Made by a program: the position numbers and the translations under genes
The notes under the pieces: model-generated
Seen by the model: the letters and a program-made list of their open reading frames with translations, nothing else
Database searches by the model: none
What the model was told of the DNA's origin: nothing
Assembly: GCA_039794085.1 (NCBI GenBank)
Contig: JBDIWC010000003.1
Location: forward strand, 72,152 to 136,151
Length of the DNA stretch: 64,000 nucleotides
Source: Gemmatimonadales bacterium
GTDB lineage: Bacteria > Gemmatimonadota > Gemmatimonadetes > Gemmatimonadales > GWC2-71-9
Direction: 5' to 3'
In this document: one piece after another, positions 42,737 through 60,416 of the stretch
Layout of the letters: each line of letters opens with the position of its first letter
Numbering within the stretch: position 1 is the stretch's first letter

Positions 42737-45112
42737 GTGTCTGGATTCATGATGAAAGCAGGTATGTCTGCGATGCGGTTCCCCGGGATGCCACTCGTCC
42801 GCTCTCGCCTCTTCCCCCTCTCGGGGTGGGGGCGCGGGGCGGCGTGTGCCTCCCTGCTGGTGGCACTGGGGATGGGACCCGCCGCCGGGATCCTTCGAGG
42901 CCAGGAACAGGTCGGAATCGAAGAAGCGGCGCTCCTCCGGTTCCAGGATTCCCTTCGCCGGGTCAACGACACGGTGGATCTCGGGGAACTCGAGAGGCGA
43001 TTGATCCTCCAGGCATCCCGGGCCATCTCCGATCCGGCGCTCCACCTCCGGCTCGGGTTTCTCGCCCTCCGGCTGGGCGAATTGGGCCAGACCGCCCACT
43101 TCAACGATGCGGCGAGCGAATTCCTCTGGACCACCCGTCTCCGTCCCGCCGCTCCCCTCGGCTGGTACGGACTGGGCCTCTCCGAGTTTGCGCTCGGACG
43201 GGTTCAAGCCGAGGCCTCACGCCGGGTTGCCGTCGGGCTGTTGGCGCGGGACGCCGCGGATCGGGCCGTCGTGGCCTTTGCGCGCGCCGCGGAGGTGGAC
43301 CCCGGATTTGCGCATCGGCTCTATGCCCTGGCGGTGCGTTCCGTTCACGAGCGGGAGCCGACCCGGGCCCGGCTCGCCCTGGAGGCGCTGCGGCGCACCG
43401 CGCGGGGAACCACCGCCTCCCTGGATGTGCGCCTCAAGCTCGCCCTGGGCCGAACCGAGCGTGAGTTCGGGGATCTCACACTGGCCTTGCTGGCATTTGA
43501 TCAGGTGGCGGACGATCTCGGTCCCCGGGGGGCGGGGCTTCCACTTCTCGAGGTGGCCCGGACCCGCTTCCTGATGGGGCGTCGTGATGGGGCGGTGCCG
43601 TACTTTGCCGGGGCGCGATCGGACGATTCGGCCACCGTGGCCGAGTATCGGAGCGATCTCGCCCCGATCGCGTCCCCCGCGGAACTCGCGAGGTTCGATG
43701 GAACCCGGGGGGAGGCCCGGGCCACCTTCCTCGCCCGGTTCTGGCGGGAGCGCGACCTGGCGGAGTTCCGGGAGCCGGGCGAGCGTCTGGTGGAGCATTA
43801 CCGGCGACTCTACGAGGCTCGGCGTCGCTTTCCCCTCCGGGTTCCTCCCCGGGTGTGGGACGACCGCACCTGGATCGCCGTCAGCGAGGGGCCCCGGGTG
43901 GACGAACGGGGCGAGATCTTCATACGTCACGGCGAGCCCGACGACCGGGCCACCCTCCAGACCTTGGGGGTCGAGCCCAACGAATCGTGGCGCTACGCCC
44001 GGGGCGGGCAGGATCTCATCCTCCACTTCGTTGCCCGCCAGGATCCCGAGAACTTCCGTCTGGTCGAGAGTGTCTTCGACATCGTGGACGTGCGGAATGG
44101 AGCGACGCTGGCGGCGGGAGGGCCGGCCGGGCGGTCGGGTGATTCCTCCCGCGGTGGGTCGCCGCGCTGGAGCAGAGACGAACTGGTCCGATCCCGGGCC
44201 ATTCTGGGGTCGGTTTATGGAGCGATCTCGGGCGCGGGAGGGTCGGAGGGGCGGGGTGGGGAGGATCTTCAGCTTGCCGAACGGCTGATCGGCCGGAGCA
44301 GCATTGTTCAGGCCCGGGGGACCGATTCCTACCGGCGACGGTTCCAGGCCGACCTCGGCGCGCGGGCGGAGGTTCTGGTGGCTCATGGTGCGGCCCGTGA
44401 TGGGGCCCCGGGAAGCGTTGTGGTCCCGTTTGCCGTTCCTGGCGGCGGGATGGAGCCGGTGCGGGGTTCGGGAGGGTTCGAGTATCCCCTGCGGCTGCGT
44501 CTCCTGCTGAGCGATCTGGACGGCGAGCCGGCTCTGCTGCGGGACACCACGGTGAGTCTCGAGACCCCGCGCCTTCTCCCGCCGAACCGGGTGGTCCGCA
44601 GTGCGGTCCGCCTGCCGGTGCCGGCGGGACGATATGTGGCCCGGCTGCTCCTCGAGCAGGGGGATCAGGCCGGGACCTCCTTTGCACCCACGGTGGTGGA
44701 GGTGAGCCGGGTGAGCCACGACTCCCTCTCCGCCGGCGACGTTCTCCTCCGGTCGCTCACCCGCCGGGGAGGAGAGGTCGCGGTGGGAGCTCCCATCGAC
44801 GACTCCCTCCTGGTCTCCCCGACCGGATCCTATGTCCAGGGGGATCGCCTCGGAGTGTCTCTTTTGCTGGCGGCGGAGCGCCCCTGGACGAGTCTCGAGG
44901 CGCGGCTGGTACTGATCCGCCAGGGAGAGGATGCCCGGGTGGAACTCAATCGCGTCGTCACCGAGTCGGGACTGGCTCGTTCGGCCCGGCTGGATCAGGT
45001 GCTCGACCTGGGCGGGGTCCGGCCCGGGGAGTACTCGCTGGAGCTCACGGTGCGGACTCCGGATGGGCGTCTGGTGCGCCGGTGGCGGGACCTGGTGGTC
45101 TCGGGGCGCTGA
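42737..45112 (+). CDS. GWxTD-domain-like secreted protein with TPR-like N-terminus
   Basis: FW..RD...EHYRR...A...F and DERG.IFIRHGEPD...ESWRY pattern; start uncertain (42737-42788). Confidence 0.72.
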   Translation: MSGFMMKAGMSAMRFPGMPLVRSRLFPLSGWGRGAACASLLVALGMGPAAGILRGQEQVGIEEAALLRFQDSLRRVNDTVDLGELERRLILQASRAISDPALHLRLGFLALRLGELGQTAHFNDAASEFLWTTRLRPAAPLGWYGLGLSEFALGRVQAEASRRVAVGLLARDAADRAVVAFARAAEVDPGFAHRLYALAVRSVHEREPTRARLALEALRRTARGTTASLDVRLKLALGRTEREFGDLTLALLAFDQVADDLGPRGAGLPLLEVARTRFLMGRRDGAVPYFAGARSDDSATVAEYRSDLAPIASPAELARFDGTRGEARATFLARFWRERDLAEFREPGERLVEHYRRLYEARRRFPLRVPPRVWDDRTWIAVSEGPRVDERGEIFIRHGEPDDRATLQTLGVEPNESWRYARGGQDLILHFVARQDPENFRLVESVFDIVDVRNGATLAAGGPAGRSGDSSRGGSPRWSRDELVRSRAILGSVYGAISGAGGSEGRGGEDLQLAERLIGRSSIVQARGTDSYRRRFQADLGARAEVLVAHGAARDGAPGSVVVPFAVPGGGMEPVRGSGGFEYPLRLRLLLSDLDGEPALLRDTTVSLETPRLLPPNRVVRSAVRLPVPAGRYVARLLLEQGDQAGTSFAPTVVEVSRVSHDSLSAGDVLLRSLTRRGGEVAVGAPIDDSLLVSPTGSYVQGDRLGVSLLLAAERPWTSLEARLVLIRQGEDARVELNRVVTESGLARSARLDQVLDLGGVRPGEYSLELTVRTPDGRLVRRWRDLVVSGR

Positions 45113-45176
45113 GCCCGGGAGCAGATTTGTGATGTGAATACCGGTTCGTCGCGCCCTGCCGTCCCTTCGCCCGGGA

Positions 45177-45205
45177 TTGTGCTCCCTCTCCCGATCTCCT
45201 AGCTT
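45177..45205 (+). promoter_or_regulatory. Putative sigma70 promoter upstream of nrdJ
   Basis: TTGTGC-17 bp-TAGCTT. Confidence 0.45.
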
Positions 45206-45244
45206 GACCATCCCAACACAGCTCCCCGCGTGAGGCTGGACGGG

Positions 45245-45268
45245 CACCCTTCGGGGTGGTTTTTTGTT
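45245..45268 (+). terminator. Intrinsic terminator-like hairpin in the nrdJ leader
   Basis: CACCC-TTCG-GGGTG followed by GTTTTTTGTT. Confidence 0.6.
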
Positions 45269-45312
45269 CGCTCTTCCTTCGCTACTTTTGAACAGAACAC
45301 AGAGAGGGATCC

Positions 45313-47841
45313 ATGGCATCTGCCTCCCCGCAGCGGGCGCCGATTTCGCTGTCGCCGAACGCGATGACCGTCCTTGAAAAGCGCTACCTCATCAAGGATG
45401 ATGCGGGGAACCCGGTCGAACGTCCCGAAGATCTCTTCCTGCGCGTGGCCCGGGTGGTGGCGGCCCCCGATCGGCAGTACGGCGCCTCGGACGGGGCGGT
45501 CGACACCCTCGCCGACGCCTTCTATGACGTGATGGCCCGCCGGCTCTTCATGCCGAACTCCCCCACCCTGATGAACGCGGGACGTCCCTTGGGGCAGCTC
45601 TCGGCGTGCTTCGTCCTCCCGGTCGACGATGCGCTGAGCAACGGCGAGAGCGGCATCTATGACACCCTGCGGTCGATGGCCCTGGTGCATCAGTCGGGAG
45701 GGGGCACCGGCTTCAGCTTCTCGGCGCTCCGTCCCCGCAACGACATCGTGCGCTCCACCATGGGGGTGGCCTCGGGGCCGATCTCCTTCATGTCCCTCTT
45801 CGACGCCTCCACCGATGTCGTGAAGCAGGGAGGGACCCGCCGGGGCGCCAACATGGGGATCCTCCGGGTCGACCATCCCGACATCCTGGATTTCATCGCC
45901 TGCAAGGACGATACCTCGCGGATCACCAACTTCAACATCTCGGTGGCCGTCACCGACGCCTTCATGGCCGCGGTCGAGGTGGATGGCCAGTACGATCTTC
46001 TCCATCCCCGCACCCACGAGGTGGTGGGGCAGCTCCGCGCCCGCGAGGTCTGGGAGCGGATCATCCACGGTGCCTGGAAAACCGGGGAGCCGGGGGTGTT
46101 CTTCATCGACCGGGCCAACTACTACAATCCGGTGCCCCACCTCGGGTCGTACGAGGCCACCAACCCGTGCGGAGAGCAACCGCTTCTCCCCTACGACGTC
46201 TGCAACCTCGGGTCGATCAACCTCGGAGCCTTCGTCTCCGCCACCGGCACCGACCTCGACTGGGACCATCTCCGGCAGGTGGTCCACCTGACGACGCACT
46301 TCCTCGAGAACGTGATCGACGCGAATCACTATCCGCTGCCTGCCATCACCGACCTGGCCCAGCGGATCCGGCGCATTGGACTCGGGGTCATGGGGCTCGC
46401 CGACGTCTTCGTCCGGCTCGGTATCCCCTACGACTCGGAGGAGGCCGTCGCCCTGGGACGCAAGATCCAGCGCTTCGTCGACGAGGAGGGGAAGAACGAA
46501 TCCGAACGGCTCGCCGGGATCCGCGGACCCTTCCCCGAATGGGACCGGAGCATCTGGGGGCCCGATGCCACCTGTGCCCGCGATGCCCAGGGCCACCGGA
46601 TCCGCCCCATGCGGCGGCTCCGCAACTGCAACGTGACCACCGTGGCGCCCACCGGCACCATCTCGATCATCGCCGGGTGCAGCTCGGGGATCGAGCCCCT
46701 CTTCGCGGTGGCCTTCATGCGGAACCAGGCCGGCGTGCTGATGCCCGACGTCAATCAGGACTTCGTCGACATCGCCCGGCGCGAGGGGTGGTACTCCGAC
46801 GCCCTCATGCACCGGATCGCCGAGGCGGGACACCTCCAGTTCGACGAGGTGCCCGAGCAGTGGCGCCGGGTGTTCGTCACCGCCAACGCTATCCGACCCG
46901 AGTGGCACATCCGGATGCAGGCCGCCTTCCAGGAATACAACGACTCGGCCATCTCCAAGACCTGCAACTTTGCCCACGAGGCCACCGAGGAGGACGTCGA
47001 GGAGATCTACCGCCTCGCCTACCGCCTGGGGTGCAAGGGAGTCACCGTCTATCGCGACGGGAGCCGCGACATGCAGGTCCTGAGCACCGGATCCACCGCG
47101 AAGAAGGTCCAGGAGCAGGCCACCGGGTCCGGATCCGCCCAGGCCCGGGGCGACCTCGCCGCCATGTCCTCCGCCGCGCCCGACGGCCGCCGGACCGAGA
47201 GTGCCGACCTGCGGGGGGAACTCGCCGAGCTGCGGGCCGAGAACGAGCGCCTCCGCCGCGTGGTGCACGAACTCGAGTCCGAGAATCTCCAGCGTCGCCA
47301 GAAGCGGAGCCGCCCCGAAATGCTCCGGGGCACCACCCGCCGGGTCGACACTCCCCTCGGCACCATGTACGTCACCATCACCGAGGACGACAAGGGGCAG
47401 GCCTTCGAGGTCTTCATGAGTCTCGGCAAGGCGGGCGGAGCCCTCATGGCCGACGTCGAAGCCCTCGGTCGTCTCATCAGCCTCGCCCTCCGGTCCGGGA
47501 TCTCCATGAAGGAGATCCACCGCCAGCTCCGGGGCATCAGCTCCGACCGGGTCATCGGTCTCGGCGCCAGCCGCGTCATGTCCGTCCCCGATGCCGTCGG
47601 CATTGCGCTCGAACGGTGGATGATCGAGAAGCAGGGGATCCAGGAGGAACTCCTCCCCGGCAGCGCCCCGGCCCCCGCCGATTCGATCGTCCGCACCGTG
47701 TCCCGCGGCGGAGAGGAAACCCTCTTCACTCCCCACCAGGCCGAACACCTGCTCGGTGCCTGCCCCGACTGCGGCTCCCAGCTCGAGTTCGCCGAAGGGT
47801 GCATGAAGTGCCACGTCTGCGGCTTCAGCGAGTGCGGATGA
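45313..47841 (+). CDS. nrdJ: Vitamin B12-dependent class II ribonucleotide reductase with TSCPD-like domain and C-terminal Zn ribbon
   Basis: NSPTLMNAG, SACFV, TNPCGEQPL, APTGTIS, CKGVTVYRDGSR, CPDC...C..CGFSECG. Confidence 0.95.
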   Translation: MASASPQRAPISLSPNAMTVLEKRYLIKDDAGNPVERPEDLFLRVARVVAAPDRQYGASDGAVDTLADAFYDVMARRLFMPNSPTLMNAGRPLGQLSACFVLPVDDALSNGESGIYDTLRSMALVHQSGGGTGFSFSALRPRNDIVRSTMGVASGPISFMSLFDASTDVVKQGGTRRGANMGILRVDHPDILDFIACKDDTSRITNFNISVAVTDAFMAAVEVDGQYDLLHPRTHEVVGQLRAREVWERIIHGAWKTGEPGVFFIDRANYYNPVPHLGSYEATNPCGEQPLLPYDVCNLGSINLGAFVSATGTDLDWDHLRQVVHLTTHFLENVIDANHYPLPAITDLAQRIRRIGLGVMGLADVFVRLGIPYDSEEAVALGRKIQRFVDEEGKNESERLAGIRGPFPEWDRSIWGPDATCARDAQGHRIRPMRRLRNCNVTTVAPTGTISIIAGCSSGIEPLFAVAFMRNQAGVLMPDVNQDFVDIARREGWYSDALMHRIAEAGHLQFDEVPEQWRRVFVTANAIRPEWHIRMQAAFQEYNDSAISKTCNFAHEATEEDVEEIYRLAYRLGCKGVTVYRDGSRDMQVLSTGSTAKKVQEQATGSGSAQARGDLAAMSSAAPDGRRTESADLRGELAELRAENERLRRVVHELESENLQRRQKRSRPEMLRGTTRRVDTPLGTMYVTITEDDKGQAFEVFMSLGKAGGALMADVEALGRLISLALRSGISMKEIHRQLRGISSDRVIGLGASRVMSVPDAVGIALERWMIEKQGIQEELLPGSAPAPADSIVRTVSRGGEETLFTPHQAEHLLGACPDCGSQLEFAEGCMKCHVCGFSECG

Positions 47842-47904: not shown

Positions 47905-48226
47905 GTCATCGCGAGGGCCCGCAGGGTGTGGTCATCGCGAGGGCCCATGCTGTCATCGCGAGGGCCCGCAGGGCCCGTGGCGATCTCGTGAGCCCATGCC
48001 TGCCAGGCGGGACGCAAGGTCGGCCATCCTGCCGGAGTCGGCCATGCCGTCATCGCGAGGGCCCGCAGGGCCCGTGGCGATCTCGTGAGCCCATGCCTGC
48101 CAGGCGGGACGCAAGGTCGGCCATCCTGCCGGAGTCGGCCATGCTGTCATCGCGAGGGCCCGGAGGGCCCGTGGCGATCTCGTAAGCCGATGCCGGGGTC
48201 CCGAGACACCGGGTTGGCCTTCATGC
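47905..48226. repeat. Tandem REP-like array left of the GIY-YIG gene
   Basis: GTCATCGCGAG at 47905, 47931, 47952, 48049, 48146; 97-bp period with identical linkers for the last three. Confidence 0.93.
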
Positions 48227-48551
48227 CACACTCACCAGCGTCTTCCAGTGGGTTATGCAACAGCCTCCCGCCAAGATCAGCCCAGGTGGGATTCGTCTCT
48301 TCGATCAAGGCGACCTTCTTCGACCGGCGACCGGCCTTGATCTGCTTTTCGCGAGCAATCGCACCCGCAGCGCTTTCCGATGTTTCGTAGTAGACGAGCT
48401 TCCAAACTCGGTATCGCTTTGCGAAGGAACCGCCGTAAGTACCGAGCCGGTGCTGGAGGAGGCGACGGCAGAGATCGGATGTCATGCCGGTGTAGAGAAC
48501 GGAGTTTCTCGTGTTCGCGAGGATGTACACGAAGTAGGGACGTGAGCGCAT
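48147..48551 (-). CDS. Stand-alone GIY-YIG nuclease (YhbQ/UPF0213-like)
   Basis: YFVYIL...LYTGMTSDL.RR..QH, LVYYE, AIAREKQIK, NPTW.DL. Confidence 0.92.
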   Translation of the reverse strand: MRSRPYFVYILANTRNSVLYTGMTSDLCRRLLQHRLGTYGGSFAKRYRVWKLVYYETSESAAGAIAREKQIKAGRRSKKVALIEETNPTWADLGGRLLHNPLEDAGECGMKANPVSRDPGIGLRDRHGPSGPSR

Positions 48552-48630
48552 TCCGGAGTCTACTGCGCATCGGGATCTGACTCATGGCCCATTGAACGCG
48601 GGAAGGGGCACAAGTAACGCCGCACCAGCG

Positions 48631-49090
48631 GTCATCGCGAGGGCCCATGCTGTCATCGCGAGGGCCCATGCTGTCATCGCGAGGGCCCGCAGGGCCCGTG
48701 GCGATCCCGTGAGCCCATGCCCGCCGGGCGCGACGCAGCGTTGGCCATCCCGCCGAAACCCCACCTGTCCGGGCTCTGGTGTGAAGGCCGGCCATCCGGC
48801 TCCCGAAGCCGACTTCCGCTCACGAGATCGCCACGTCGGCTTCGCCTCCTCGCGATGACGACCTCCGCGAGGGCCCGCAGGGCCCGTGGCGATCCCGTGA
48901 GCCCATGCCCGCCGGGCGCGACGCAGCGTTGGCCATCCCGCCGAAACCCCACCTGTCCGGGCTCTGGTGTGAAGGCCGGCCATCCGGCTCCCGAAGCCGA
49001 CTTCCGCCCACGAGATCGCCACGTCGGGCTTGTTGCGAAGGCCCGAAGGGCCTGTGGCAATCGCCTCCTCGCGATGACGACCTCCGCGGG
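48631..49090. repeat. REP-like array right of the GIY-YIG gene (21-bp units plus two inverted doublets)
   Basis: GTCATCGCGAG at 48631, 48652, 48673; inverse copies at 48849 and 49068; a unit of about 190 bp is duplicated. Confidence 0.93.
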
Positions 49091-49210: not shown

Positions 49211-49471
49211 ATGCCGAACGAAGAGCTGAAACCGATCTCTCCCGAACGCGTGGCCGAGGAACTCCGCCGGATCTGTGGTTCGTTCCGGAGGGGCGAGATC
49301 AAGGCGGATGAATACGAGCATCGGTTTGCCCGCATGATCGGTGAACTGCGGGACCGCCGGATCGACGGCACTCGCGCCGAGATTCTCGCCGTCCTCTCCC
49401 CGTTGCAGCTCGAGGGCGTCGTGTCCCCCACCGAGTGGTTGCGCCTCACCAAGCAACTCGGCCTTGCCTGA
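49211..49471 (+). CDS. Hypothetical helical protein (86 aa)
   Basis: GAGGA RBS then ATG 49211; overlaps the AKR start. Confidence 0.6.
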   Translation: MPNEELKPISPERVAEELRRICGSFRRGEIKADEYEHRFARMIGELRDRRIDGTRAEILAVLSPLQLEGVVSPTEWLRLTKQLGLA

Positions 49472-50387: not shown

Positions 50388-50870
50388 GTCATCGCGAGGA
50401 CCCATGCCGTCATCGCGAGGGCCCGCAGGGCCCGTGGCGATCCCGTGAGCCCATGCCTTCCTGGCACGACGCAAGGTTGGCCATCCTGCCGGAGTTCTGC
50501 CATGCCGTCATCGCGAGGGCCCGCAGGGGGCCGTCATCGCGAGGGCCCGCAGGGCCCGTGGCGATCCCGTGAGCCCATGCCCGCCTGGCACGACGCAAGG
50601 TCGGCCATCCTGCCGGAGTTCTGCCAATGGGCCCCGGCATGAAGGCCGGCCACCCGCTCCCGGCGTCGGCCTCCGCTCACGAGATCGCCACGGCGGCCAA
50701 GGCCGCCTCGCGATGACGGCTCAGGCATGAAGGCCGGCCGCCCTCTCCCGAAGCCGACTTCCGCTCACGAGATCGCCACGTCGGCTTCGCCTCCTCGCGA
50801 TGACGGCCTCCGTGCGGTCCCGCGCCTCCTCGCGATGACGGCCTCCTTCACACTTCGAACTTCAAACTTC
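50388..50870. repeat. GTCATCGCGAG-family repeat cluster plus CTTCAAA heptamers
   Basis: Forward copies at 50388, 50409, 50507, 50533; inverse at 50707, 50794, 50829. Confidence 0.9.
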
Positions 50871-52158: not shown

Positions 52159-52850
52159 TCGCCGATCTCCCCCTGCTGGAACGGCCGCTGGCGGCACTTC
52201 CCGTCATCTTCGGCGCGGGGCTCGTCACCAGCCTCACGCCGTGTGTCTATCCGATGATCCCCATCACCGCCGGGATTCTGGGCGGCGAGGGCGCCGTGGG
52301 CCGGTCGCGGAAACGCACCGTGGTGCTCACCGGGGTCTATGTGCTGGGGCTCGCGCTGGTCTACGCCTCACTGGGTCTTCTGGCGGGCCTCACGGGGACG
52401 CTGTTCGGGACGGTGAGCTCCAATCCCTGGGCCTACTTCCTCTTCGGGAATCTGCTCCTGGTGCTTGGACTCGGCATGCTGGATGTCTTTCCCATGGCGG
52501 CCCCCCAGCGCTGGGTGGCCTGGGCCTCCCGATTCGGCGGCGGGTCGGTGGGCGGCGTGTTCCTGATGGGGGCCACGTCGGGACTCGTGGCGGCGCCCTG
52601 CGGCGCGCCGGCCTTCGGTGCCATTCTCACGTTCGTGGGCGGCACCGGGAGCCCCCTCTGGGGCTTCATCTATCTCTTCGTGTTCTCGCTCGGCATGACG
52701 GCGCTGCTGGTGGGGGTGGGGCTCTCGTCGGGCCTCATCGCCTCGCTCCCCAGGCCGGGGCGCTGGACCGGGATGGTGAAGAAGGCCGGCGGCGTGCTGA
52801 TCCTGGCGATGGCGGAATATTATTTCGTGCAGATGGGGAAGGTACTGTAG
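52155..52850 (+). CDS. DsbD/CcdA-type transmembrane thiol-disulfide protein
   Basis: [12 protein letters not shown] and AAPCGAP; GTG overlapping the ispG stop. Confidence 0.88.
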
Positions 52851-53075
52851 GCGGTAGGCGGGAGGCGATAGGCGATAGGGGAAACGCCCCAGGGGCGATC
52901 GCGCAGCGTCGCCCGAGGCCCGGATGTTCCCGGGAACGTTTCGCAGGGGCGATGCGCAGCGTCGCCCGAGGCCCGGATGTTTCCGGGAACGTTTTACAGG
53001 GGGTGACGCATGCGTCGCCCGTGCCCCGGATGTTCCAGTAGCCATATTCAAGGGCGACGCCCAGCGTCGCCCGAG
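52848..53075. repeat. TAGGCGR heptamers plus about 53-bp tandem units containing a GGGCGA..GC..GCGTCGCCC palindrome
   Basis: Four palindrome variants at roughly 53-bp spacing. Confidence 0.8.
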
Positions 53076-53097
53076 CTTTCAGATGCAAGGAGTTCTC

Positions 53098-53610
53098 ATG
53101 AAGCGCACCATCCTCGCCCTCGCCGCCCTCGGGGCCCTCACGGCCCTCCCGGCCGAGGCCCAGTTCGACGAGGGCCTCCCGGTCGGCAGCAAAGCTCCGG
53201 TCGTCGTCGTCAACGATCTCGACGGGAACCCCTTCGACCTCGGCACCGTAATCGGGAAGAAGCCGGTCTTCCTCGAGTTCTGGGCCACCTGGTGCACCAT
53301 CTGCGAGGAACTCCTCCCCACCGTCAAGGCGGTGCACCGGAAGTACGGCGACCGGGTCGAGTGGATCGGGGTGAACGTGACGGTGAACCAGTCGGTGAAC
53401 CGGGTCCGGCGCTATCTCGAGACCCACGAACCCCCGTTCCGCACCCTCTACGACAGCAAGGGAGCCGCGGTGCGGGCCTACGAGGCTCCCACCACGTCTC
53501 ATGTGGTCGTGGTGAATGCTCAGGGGATCGTGGTCTATACGGGGAGCGGCGGAAAGCAGGACCTCGAGGCCGCCATCAAGCTGGCGCTGGGAGACGGGGG
53601 GGGGGCCTGA
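53098..53610 (+). CDS. TlpA-family thiol-disulfide oxidoreductase
   Basis: Signal peptide; FWATWCTIC. Confidence 0.9.
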   Translation: MKRTILALAALGALTALPAEAQFDEGLPVGSKAPVVVVNDLDGNPFDLGTVIGKKPVFLEFWATWCTICEELLPTVKAVHRKYGDRVEWIGVNVTVNQSVNRVRRYLETHEPPFRTLYDSKGAAVRAYEAPTTSHVVVVNAQGIVVYTGSGGKQDLEAAIKLALGDGGGA

Positions 53611-54236: not shown

Positions 54237-54741
54237 GTCATCGCGAGGAGGCTGTCATCGCGAGGGCCCGCAGGGCCCGTGGCGATCCCGTGAGCCCATG
54301 CCGGCCCGACGAGACGCGGGGTTGGCCATCCCGCCGGAACCCCCGGATGCTGTCATCGCGAGGGCCCGCAGGGGCAATGCCGTCATCGCGAGGGCCCGGC
54401 AGGGCCCGTGGCGATCCCGTGAGCCCATGCCGGCCTGACGAGAGACAGGGCTGGCCATCCCGCCGGAACTCCCGGAGGCTGTCATCGCGAGGGCCCGCAG
54501 GGCCCGTGGCGATCCCGTGAGCCCATGCTGGCCTGACGCGACGGCAAGGCGGGCCATCTCACCGGAACCCTCCCCACCCGGGCTCCGGCAGGAAGGCCGA
54601 CCTGGCGTCTCGCGGCATCGGAATCGGCTCACGGGATCGCCACGTCGGCTTCGCCTCCTCGCGATGACGAGTTCCCAACCCCCAATACCCAATACCCAGC
54701 CCCCCAGCCCCCAACACCCAACACCCAACACCCAACACCCC
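54237..54741. repeat. GTCATCGCGAG-family cluster plus AACACCC/AATACCC heptamers
   Basis: Forward copies at 54237, 54254, 54352, 54382, 54481; inverse at 54658. Confidence 0.9.
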
Positions 54742-58125: not shown

Positions 58126-58646
58126 GAAGTTTGAAGTTCGAAGTTATAGGGGCGGTCCGTGGACCGCCCCAGGGGCGATGCGCTGCGCCGCCCGAGGCCC
58201 GTCATTGCAGGGGGCCGTGTGCCGGGGCGAGGTGGGGAAGTTCGAAGTGTGAAGTTTGAAGCGAATCGAAATGATCCCTTCGTCACCCGTCGAACTTCAC
58301 ACTTCCCTGGTGGGCGACGTGCTCTCCTACCTGGCCGGTGGGATGAGCGAGGACCGAGCGCGAGCGTCGACTGGCGAGCGTTCCCGGCAGCTGAGCCGAC
58401 CTTGCGCGACGCCCCCGCATGAAGCTGCTGTTCGATGAGAACCTCGCACATGAGTTCGTATTTCCCGGGGCTCACGCCCCTTGCTCGGCCGCGGGAGGTG
58501 GCTCACGCCACCCGTGCTCGGGTGCACGCCCGGCCGTGTGAACGGCCTCTTGCCGCCGAGCCCGGGGCGTCAGCCCCGTGGTTTATGATATCGATCGCCT
58601 CTCACCGCCGAGCCCGGGGTGTGTACGGGCGGTTCGTGAACCGCCC
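58126..58646. repeat. REP-like cluster left of the Y1 transposase
   Basis: GAAGTTT heptamers; GCCGAGCCCGGGGCGTCAGCCCCG at 58555; GTACGGGCGGTTCGTGAACCGCCC 58623-58646. Confidence 0.8.
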
Positions 58647-58749
58647 TTTCCCGTCGTTCACGAACGCGAGTCGTGCGTGCTGCGTTTCCTGGATTGGCTG
58701 ACCGTTGAAATGGTTACGGCCGTCGGCCAGATCCTACGATACTTCCTGC

Positions 58750-59154
58750 ATGCGCCATCGCGTCTACTTCCATCTGGTTTGGACCACCCAGGACCGGATG
58801 CCCTTGATTGATGAGGACCGCGCTCGGTGCCTCCGTCGCCTTGTGCCCACGATCGCCCGGGAGGCCGGGGCTCATCTGATGGGGCTGGGTATCGTCACGA
58901 CCCACCTCCATGTCCTGGTGCGAGTACCTCCCGGTTTTGATTGCGGGCGGTTCGTTGGCCGAACCAAGTCGGTGAGTGCCCTGCTGGCCCGGCGGGACCG
59001 ACTGGGGGATCAGTCACGCCCGCTTCGGTGGGTGGAGGGATACTCGGTGACGAGCGTGGGGCCCGGAGAGGTGGACCGGGTGCAACAGTATGTCCTTGGA
59101 CAGTCGCGGCGCCATCCCCGCGAGGCGATCGGGGGAACTCGCACGGCGGACTGA
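58750..59154 (+). mobile_element. tnpA: IS200/IS605-family HUH (Y1) transposase, RAYT-like context
   Basis: FHLVWTT..R.P, HLH (HUH), K..S, W.EGY...SV, Y...Q; no tnpB. Confidence 0.85.
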
Positions 59155-59169
59155 GGCCACGGGTGAGCG

Positions 59170-59350
59170 CCCGGCCGTGGGAACGGCCTCTCTCCGCCGA
59201 GCCCGGGGCGTCAGCCCCGTGGTTTACGCATCGATTTCCCGGGGGAAGGGCGGTTCACGAACCGCCCCTACGCGCCACCGAGAGCCTAGGTGCACACCTG
59301 GCCGTGTGAACGGCCTCTCGCCGCCGAGCCCGGGGTGTCAACCCCGGGGT
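59170..59350. repeat. REP-like cluster right of the Y1 transposase
   Basis: GCCGAGCCCGGGG.GTCA.CCCCG at 59196 and 59323; GGGCGGTTCACGAACCGCCCCTAC 59248-59271. Confidence 0.82.
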
Positions 59351-59443
59351 TCACGAAACCGACCGCCCTTTGCTCGGCCGCGTTGCCATTGTTTTCCGGG
59401 GTGGGGCGGTTCACCAGGTCGACTGCCCTACCCCCTTCGAGAG

Positions 59444-59475
59444 CAAAGGTATTACATTCGAAAGTAATACCTTTG
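59444..59475. promoter_or_regulatory. Putative VapBC autoregulatory operator
   Basis: Perfect 12-bp inverted repeat CAAAGGTATTAC-8 bp-GTAATACCTTTG just upstream of the antitoxin gene. Confidence 0.7.
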
Positions 59476-59497
59476 TACCCTCGGGTCAGGAGGCGTC

Positions 59498-59734
59498 ATG
59501 AAGATCACCAGCAAGGGGCAAGTCACCATTCCGGTCGAGATCCGCGAGCGTTTCGGATTGCTCCCCCAGACCGAGGTCGAGTTCACCATCCGCGATGGCC
59601 ACGTGGTGCTGCGTCGTCCCGTGCGGGGGGGCCGCCCGGGGAAGCGGGGTCAGGCTCTCGTGGAGCATCTCCGGGGCCGCGCCACCGAACGCCTGACCAC
59701 CGACGAAATCCTGGCGCTGACCCGCGAGGGGTGA
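59498..59734 (+). CDS. vapB: AbrB/MazE-type antitoxin
   Basis: MKITSKGQVTIP..IRE.FGL; AGGAGG RBS. Confidence 0.88.
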   Translation: MKITSKGQVTIPVEIRERFGLLPQTEVEFTIRDGHVVLRRPVRGGRPGKRGQALVEHLRGRATERLTTDEILALTREG

Positions 59735-59738
59735 TTCG

Positions 59739-60146
59739 GTGGGCCGCGTTCTGGTGGACAGCAACGTGCTGCTCGACATCCTGACCGACGATCCGGTCTG
59801 GGCGGAGTGGTCGGCGGAGGTGCTGAGCGAGGTGGGGGATGAATCGGTCCTCGTGATCAACCCGATCATCTACGCCGAGGTCTCGGTGGGCCTCCGCCGG
59901 ATCGAGGAACTCGAGGAGGTGCTTTCTCCGGAGTGGATCCAGCGCGAGCCCTTGCCGTGGGACGCGGCGTTTCTGGCCGGGAAGTGTTTTCTGAAGTATC
60001 GTCGCCACCGGGGAACCAGACGGTCACCGCCGCTTCCCGACTTTTACATCGGCGCGCACGCCGCGGTGCGGGGGATGACGCTCATCACCCGGGATCCGCG
60101 CCGGTATCTCACGTACTTTCCCGGCCTCTCGATCGTCTGCCCGTGA
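59739..60146 (+). CDS. vapC: PIN-domain VapC toxin
   Basis: VLVDSNVLLD, YAE, PDFYIGAHA, LITRD. Confidence 0.92.
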   Translation: MGRVLVDSNVLLDILTDDPVWAEWSAEVLSEVGDESVLVINPIIYAEVSVGLRRIEELEEVLSPEWIQREPLPWDAAFLAGKCFLKYRRHRGTRRSPPLPDFYIGAHAAVRGMTLITRDPRRYLTYFPGLSIVCP

Positions 60147-60153
60147 GAAGTGT

Positions 60154-60416
60154 GTAGGGGCGACGCATGCGTCGCCCGAGTCCCACGCGGCAACGGAGGG
60201 CGCCGTTGGCCTGCCTTCATGCCAGGACCGACTTGCCTGCTCCGGCATGATGGCCACCCTGGTGTCTCGTCAGGTCGGCATCGGTTCACGAGATCGCCAC
60301 GGGCCCTGCGGGCCCTCGCGATGACGGCATCCCCAACACCCAACACCCAATACCTAACATCCAATACCCAATACCCAATACCCAACACCCGGGCGACGCA
60401 TGCGTCGCCCCTACAC
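60154..60416. repeat. Inverted GTAG REP pair enclosing a GTCATCGCGAG unit and heptamers
   Basis: GTAGGGGCGACGCATGCGTCGCCC 60154-60177 and its exact inverse 60391-60414. Confidence 0.9.

Follow-up and report, generated by a model that had tools for sequence, protein, structure and literature searches.

An Ssn-type GIY-YIG nuclease gene embedded in an array of YGTC-tagged hairpin repeats

Results

A GIY-YIG nuclease gene between two arrays of hairpin repeats

In the 64,000-nt stretch of DNA analyzed in this study (hereafter, the window), a gene for a small GIY-YIG nuclease lies between nrdJ and the gene of an 86-aa conserved protein and is bracketed by copies of a hairpin repeat, which we call type B (Table 1). 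Exact copies of GTCATCGCGAG, which represents a part of this repeat, were found 36 times in the window as compared with 0.07 expected from shuffled sequences, and ten of them, five per side of the nuclease gene, are held in the region 47905-49078. A first-pass annotation of this DNA had described this arrangement as the largest cluster of the window, which our counts bear out; indeed, it is the largest also in the 4.16-Mb assembly, where 104 exact copies form 62 clusters, and the next-largest clusters (7 and 6 copies) are both in the same window.

The left array is composed of three full units at 47952, 48049, and 48146 with a period of 97 bp, together with two truncated units at 47905 and 47931. 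In the right array, copies at 48631, 48652, and 48673 are spaced by 21 bp, and an inverted doublet (48673-48859) is followed by a second, 99%-identical doublet ending at 49078, the left arm of which has no GTCAT tag. The spacing of 97 bp on the left, the 21-bp units, and both inverted doublets agree with the earlier description. The same is true of two further points: namely, the stop codon of the nuclease gene (TGA at 48147-48149) is inside the repeat copy at 48146, and the DNA encoding the C-terminal tail (48146-48226) agrees with inverted 60245-60325 in 70 of 81 bases. A sigma-70 consensus promoter was not found at the locus, and a single terminator-like site was at the level of chance.

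Table 1. Positions of the nuclease gene, its repeats, and related features (window numbering unless a contig of the genome, G000, is given)
Feature	Position	Strand	Remarks
nrdJ (B12-dependent ribonucleotide reductase), left neighbor of the insertion site	45313..47841	+	NF006417 and TIGR02504 over cut-off
Two truncated units (tag and left arm), directly 5' of a full hairpin	47905..47951	+	
Three full bulged type B hairpins, 97-bp period; the third overlaps the stop codon	47952..48179	+	
Hairpin-bounded cassette, nearly identical in the sister species G001	48120..48665		2 differences in 546 nt
Ssn-family single-domain GIY-YIG nuclease, 134 aa; core of ~98 aa and tail reading into repeat DNA	48147..48551	-	PF01541, E 4e-14; similarity to Neisseria-genus proteins
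Two truncated units of 21 bp, 5' of the full hairpin that follows	48631..48672	+	
Inverted doublet (BIME/REPIN-like): two type B hairpins and linker	48673..48859		
Second doublet	48866..49078		99% copy of the first over 162 nt, left tag lost
86-aa conserved protein, right neighbor of the array	49211..49471	+	
Gene-free cluster after the aldo-keto reductase gene	50388..50839		7 type B tags
Gene-free cluster	54237..54668		6 type B tags
Gene-free hairpin and linker, homologous to the DNA encoding the nuclease tail	60245..60325	-	70/81 identical
Second Ssn-type gene	G000:C22:47694-47984		own hairpin family (type C); absent from the orthologous G001 site
Third Ssn-type gene	G000:C38:8633-8917		own hairpin family (type A); absent from the orthologous G001 site
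Fourth Ssn-type gene	G000:C73:14729-15043		without repeats; common to G001 at background divergence

The nuclease is a member of the Ssn family by sequence

Ssn (cd10448), as reported by Chenal et al. in 2025, are GIY-YIG enzymes of small size whose target is a GTC-tagged hairpin in ssDNA; they bind the hairpin and cleave a few bases away on its 5' side, and ssDNA cleavage in vitro is described for four homologs (PMC11893778). The ORF found here codes for 134 aa and has PF01541 (GIY-YIG; residues 6-78, E 4e-14) as its sole Pfam domain, with no match to the HUH/Y1 domain (PF01797), and its size and architecture are those of an Ssn, i.e., a small single-domain GIY-YIG protein of 150 aa or less. 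As a proxy for SsnA of Neisseria meningitidis (CAX49033.1), we used 94-aa, NTS-flanked proteins from the genus Neisseria, with which the identity was 47-49% over 91 aa (96% cover, E 4e-24 to 6e-22); the threshold set for similarity to SsnA was E<1e-10 over >75% of the length. Such proteins, with Y6, Y17, and E64, are encoded at five loci amid NTS copies (up to 16 copies in 3.3 kb) in a sample of 61 Neisseria-genus genomes, and among the matches listed in a homolog search from a Neisseria sp. protein, none was named N. meningitidis SsnA. Y6, Y17, and E64 are the residues mutated in the Ssn study (PMC11893778), and they align to Y9, Y20, and E68 of the 134-aa protein, which are invariant across a 24-row alignment of homologs.

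Most of the close homologs are 93-101 aa in length, so that the last ~36 residues of the 134-aa form would come from reading through, for the most part into repeat DNA. One strong homolog, 54-55% identical and flanked by type B, was found in each of Vreelandella salicampi and Algoriphagus lacus; both species are scored YES for cd10448 with a CDD score of >100 in Supplementary Data 4 of PMC11893778, where the SRM enrichment is only 0.79 and 1.05 fold. Judging from these similarities, we assign the protein to the Ssn nuclease family. A search of NCBIfam gave no family for the nuclease, and a search of the PDB by sequence gave only weak matches to UPF0213 and Slx1, with no Ssn structure found.

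Type B is a bulged hairpin outside the published SRM pattern

While the repeat that the first-pass annotation had noticed is real, the 11-mer GTCATCGCGAG is not its whole unit but the tag and left arm of a 34-nt bulged hairpin. In the type B unit, which has bulges, the outer stem measures 5 bp and the inner stem is GC-rich; folding of the unit as DNA gives -10.9 kcal/mol and leaves the YGTC tag unpaired. Full units were found 77 times in the genome, in 50 clusters; assemblies break at hairpin arrays, so that genome-wide repeat counts may be low. With the published SRM pattern, we obtained 181 matches in the genome and two in the window but none at the nuclease locus, and the type B repeat is hence not filed as SRM in the strict sense; it is a variant hairpin, longer and two-tiered, outside the SRM pattern of PMC11893778. 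No match was obtained in Rfam up to E=1.

In terms of repeat architecture, type B is like the CGTC-tagged REP superfamily of Di Nocera et al. (2013; PMC3733652), with an unpaired CGTC/TGTC tag, a stem opening with complementary AT, inverted doublets, and no associated tyrosine transposase; those REPs are said to lack a dedicated transposase (PMC3733652). As far as the text descriptions tell, type B would nonetheless be set apart from the families CGTC-1 to -4, for which a stem of 8-9 bp, a loop of 4-5 nt, and a CCA tail are described (PMC3733652), by its bulged tiers of 5+7 bp and its C/TCGTG tail. Also, the GTAG-tagged flanking REPs that are typical of RAYT/REPtron are absent, the tag of type B being YGTC.

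The nuclease and the type B repeat occur together across genomes

Loci of the best 80 of at least 597 homologs were scored with repeat patterns B and C, which we made ourselves from the window and its relatives. Type B was found within 500 bp in 47 of these 80 loci, on both sides in 30, and its density was 1.73 per kb within 500 bp versus 0.056 per kb beyond 2 kb. For the same 80 loci, the related type C was within 500 bp in 11 and SRM in one, and none of the three patterns was there in 21. The flanking enrichment that the first-pass annotation had proposed to look for is therefore about 30-fold over distal DNA among these best homologs, and together with the pairing across phyla it sustains the proposal of a cognate relationship between nuclease and repeat. 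Type B is the usual partner of a widespread Ssn branch in many phyla (47 of the best 80 of at least 597 homologs), and because it is invisible to the published SRM search, the pairing of Ssn with repeats is undercounted.

In the genomes of the first 40 of these best 80 (of at least 597) homologs, the median of other type B copies was 30 when the gene was flanked by type B (n=23) and 1 when it was not (n=17). Among 31 genomes (the own genome and 30 relatives), a match to the protein was found in 12 and the full type B pattern in five, and the same five hold the best-scoring homologs.

A comparison of the nuclease phylogeny with the repeats, which had also been proposed, was made on a quick tree of 108 proteins and 95 columns, from which we left out four rows that were short or unmatched as well as the G001 copy, which is identical; its resolution is weak, with 62 of 105 inner branches open. 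Repeat types cluster on this tree, since type B requires 14 changes while shuffled labels require 36, and the three rows flanked by SRM group on a single branch (SH-aLRT 93). Kinship alone, however, produces such a pattern.

Four Ssn-type genes and five Y1 genes in one genome

The GIY-YIG gene had been described as lone, which is correct within the window but not within the genome, where three more Ssn-type genes were found; the four are on the contigs C3 (the nuclease locus), C22, C38, and C73. Within 1 kb, the genes on C3, C22, and C38 have solely their own repeat type (B, C, and A, respectively), and the genome-wide copies amount to 77 for type B, 92 for type C, and 144 for type A. The gene on C73 has none of these types in the same range.

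Five matches to Y1_Tnp (PF01797) were also found in the genome, one of them in the window at 10 kb from the nuclease, and the 1 kb around each of the five is free of types A, B, and C. The Y1/HUH gene of the window (58750-59154, +; RAYT/TIRYT-like) has its own repeats on both sides, at ~58530-58646 and 59171-59335, the three motifs of which have 40, 24, and 21 exact copies in the genome. The Y1/HUH gene and these motifs form an HUH-repeat system of their own, 10 kb away from the nuclease gene. Beside it, a pair of an AbrB/MazE-type antitoxin and a PIN toxin is encoded at 59498-60146, and in the sister species G001 (L210:6800-8700), other repeats take the place of 58450-60360, together with a pair that looks MazEF-type by eye, and the Y1 gene is absent.

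Empty sites and a nearly identical cassette in related genomes

Another proposal of the first-pass annotation was to look for an empty site between nrdJ and the aldo-keto reductase gene, and such a site was found in two relatives. From nrdJ to the 86-aa gene, there are ~150 bp in G002 (same genus) and ~300 bp in G004; the genes after nrdJ are, in order, the 86-aa gene, aldo-keto reductase, and ispG, and neither the nuclease nor a repeat is there. When the nrdJ regions of 15 relatives were examined, the nuclease was at nrdJ in G001 only. In this sister species, furthermore, the C38 and C22 genes are missing together with their repeats from the orthologous sites, and several repeat clusters are present in just one of the two genomes (G000, i.e., the genome of this study, and G001). 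A search of the filled/empty pairs of G000 and G001 for clean insertion ends or target duplications gave none; instead, the intergenic filler is replaced wholesale. As one such variable region, G001 has a six-tag type B cluster corresponding to ~52850-53050 of the window (L150:2410-2879), and G000 has none.

Compared with a background of 7.5% differences over 201,758 aligned positions between G000 and G001, the cassette listed in Table 1 is nearly identical. Synonymous differences were 0 in the 135 codons of the nuclease ORF versus 73/843 in nrdJ, 18/87 and 28/280 in the right neighbors, and 14/105 in the repeat-less C73 paralog; at the third-position rate of nrdJ and assuming independence, the identity of the nuclease ORF has a binomial probability of 1.6e-6. 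The unique 63-bp spacer left of the array has four differences between G000 and G001, so that the near-identical tract stops at the arrays. Among seven near-identical tracts in 202 kb of alignment, the cassette alone has a repeat within 60 nt of each of its ends, and 4.6% of the sampled positions are that close to a repeat; this is a single event, and the compared G001 loci were chosen around repeats. These results suggest that the cassette was recently exchanged between the species at the hairpins. The sequencing runs X4, X5, and X7 share both differences with G001 and are hence not independent support, and contig joints in these runs are not read as excisions, the joints being within repeats.

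Two other regions stood out in this comparison. A near-identical tract of ~1.6 kb (L146:9542-11140; G000:C30 ~45100-46700) is far from any repeat and represents either background exchange or a highly conserved gene. In a thioredoxin-like gene of the window (53094-53610), many amino-acid but few third-position differences from G001 were counted, which is probably due to a frame slip in the coordinates.

Half-copies lie on the 5' side, and repeats are dense near the gene

Truncated copies composed of the tag and left arm are found directly 5' of full hairpins, and right arms are almost never found on the 3' side. With the caveat that the two arms may be detected unequally, the ratio of 5' to 3' half-copies was 12:0 among 77 type B units in G000 and 10:0 among 90 in the G001 loci. 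Type C gave 6:0 and type A gave 4:1, and in the homolog loci, the ratio was 17:4 among 196, where three of the four are whole variant copies. SsnA is reported to cut on the 5' side of the hairpin, the same side as the half-copies (PMC11893778).

Tag clusters are concentrated around the C3 gene, with eight at 1-30 kb versus 0.78 expected (about tenfold) and none in the next 90 kb. The local enrichment was three versus 0.45 expected for the C38 gene, and the C22 gene had none. In the homolog loci, the enrichment at 1.5-10 kb was modest (22 repeats versus 7.8 expected), with ten clusters in nine of 23 loci and none in the other 14. Contig C21 has an equally dense type B patch (24400-44700; eight tag clusters in 30 kb), in which an HMM search found no ssn gene. 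This patch as a continuation of the enriched region was ruled out, because synteny places C32, not C21, after C3.

The innermost repeats are direct at the nuclease locus, whereas in the homolog loci they are direct in 10 of 30 and inverted in 20 of 30. A universal direct-repeat architecture is thus ruled out, no single excision geometry can be claimed, and a unit running from cut to cut on one strand would not be general.

Discussion

We favor the reading, with a probability of roughly two in three, that the Ssn gene resides in an array of YGTC-tagged hairpins, that its product nicks 5' of the tag, and that host repair spreads and swaps segments including the gene. In this mechanism, the enzyme would recognize the hairpin once the DNA becomes single-stranded (in replication, in repair, or as incoming DNA) and would nick it a few bases 5' of the YGTC tag; host repair and recombination would then finish the duplication, spread, and exchange of hairpin-bounded segments, the gene included. 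Joining of strands by the enzyme itself is not expected. GIY-YIG enzymes hydrolyze DNA and have no known strand-joining step, so that host repair would be needed. By analogy with the published homologs, it is likely that the enzyme binds and nicks the type B hairpin; that the nicks drive the spread of repeats and the exchange of the cassette has about an even chance, as far as genome comparison can tell. Directly seen are the family membership by sequence, the pairing across phyla and by paralog, the empty sites, the near identity of the cassette in the two species, and the preference of half-copies for the 5' side; the genomic hints of mobility are suggestive but fall short of proof.

The nuclease might instead serve in a domesticated restriction that cuts incoming ssDNA at hairpins and limits integration, with repeats spreading by slippage or gene conversion and the cassette being swapped by homologous recombination without any nick. 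Restriction of incoming DNA is, in the available text of PMC11893778, the only in vivo role shown for an Ssn (in N. meningitidis); also, the arrays of the sister species differ by gains and losses of units that are typical of slippage, and the other near-identical tracts represent background exchange between G000 and G001. We nonetheless regard restriction as an unlikely explanation, since it predicts neither half-copies on the 5' side only, nor three separate gene-repeat pairs in a single genome, nor that sister species gain and lose entire modules of a gene with its repeats.

As an analogue of a self-sufficient transposase, on the other hand, the protein would both cut and insert hairpin units, and the locus would be an autonomous master copy. 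The largest repeat cluster of the genome, the excess of tag clusters within 1-30 kb (8 versus 0.78 expected), and the hairpin-bounded cassette would be consistent with this idea, which is improbable in our estimation, given that the protein has a single GIY-YIG domain and no HUH/Y1 domain, that published homologs were shown to cleave only (available text of PMC11893778), and that the compared pairs have no clean insertion ends. The term "autonomous master locus" in the first-pass annotation accordingly overreaches for a GIY-YIG enzyme without known strand joining, mobilization being deduced from genome patterns alone. The repeats could otherwise be moved in trans by a Y1/HUH (RAYT-type) transposase with the GIY-YIG gene as a passenger; five Y1_Tnp matches in the genome, one of them 10 kb away in the window, would supply candidates. 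Given, however, that none of the five has type A, B, or C within 1 kb, that the Y1 gene of the window has different repeats of its own, that CGTC-flanked tyrosine transposases were not found in PMC3733652 either, as far as its available text goes, and that the repeat follows the GIY-YIG gene across phyla, we consider movement in trans very improbable.

Returning to the Ssn gene and the proposed host-assisted spread of its hairpins, this locus works like a RAYT/REP pair but is not one. Like RAYT/REPtron and REPIN/BIME, it has a nuclease gene embedded in its own palindromes, with gene-free doublets and tandem mosaics elsewhere; unlike them, GIY-YIG replaces HUH/Y1 and YGTC replaces the GTAG tag, and the nuclease has no known covalent intermediate or strand transfer. 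The role of RAYT that the first-pass annotation ascribed to the GIY-YIG nuclease agrees with the cognate pair, the empty nrdJ site, and the lack of type A, B, or C copies within 1 kb of any Y1 gene, but it is not novel: Ssn was published in 2025. Whether the association of nuclease and repeat had been published was left unsure there, and it had been, including the RAYT/REP hypothesis, the discussion by Chenal et al. likening NTS-ssnA-NTS to RAYT/REP (PMC11893778); the pairing itself is hence no surprise.

The locus resembles SsnA with its NTS/SRM of N. meningitidis in the small single-domain GIY-YIG protein, in the same catalytic positions, in the flanking oriented GTC-tagged hairpins with C after the stem, and in the dispersal of repeats in intergenic clusters (PMC11893778). 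It differs from the published Ssn, as described in the available text of PMC11893778, in the read-through tail of ~36 aa and in the three cognate pairs of one genome; genomic evidence of cassette exchange or of 5' half-copies is likewise found here and not in that account. Our literature search returned no study of Ssn-driven mobilization and nothing on the type B sequence beyond PMC11893778 and PMC3733652, with subscription journals largely outside its coverage.

A broader proposal, which we put forward only tentatively, is that Ssn are the missing mobilizers of CGTC-type REPs: each paralog would seed its own hairpin family, 5' nicks would leave half-hairpin duplicates, repeats would accumulate near the gene, and the cassette would have crossed species, altogether resembling a homing-like selfish element acting through ssDNA nicks. 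The available texts of PMC11893778 and PMC3733652 leave open whether CGTC repeats are moved by Ssn. Three orthogonal pairs, filled and empty sites in sister species, an exchanged cassette, and a 5' scar signature make this question directly testable. For tools, furthermore, the type B hairpin likely makes a new ssDNA specificity available.

Additional observations

Some homologs and neighboring repeats deserve a separate mention. Ssn homologs with an internal stop were seen at L028 (G007) and L042 (G002), and the one in G007 keeps its flanking type B hairpins. Short tandem runs of 6-7-mers (e.g., AACACCC, GAAGTTC, TAGGGAG, and GGCGGTA) often adjoin the hairpin repeats, as does a further family of GC-rich palindromes; such sequences are seen at 60334-60390 and 58180-58270 of the window and in many intergenic regions, and they vary between G000 and G001. 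Four IMG/VR contigs (L135-L138) also have Ssn homologs, one of them with six type B hairpins nearby, and such contigs are a possible route of horizontal transfer.
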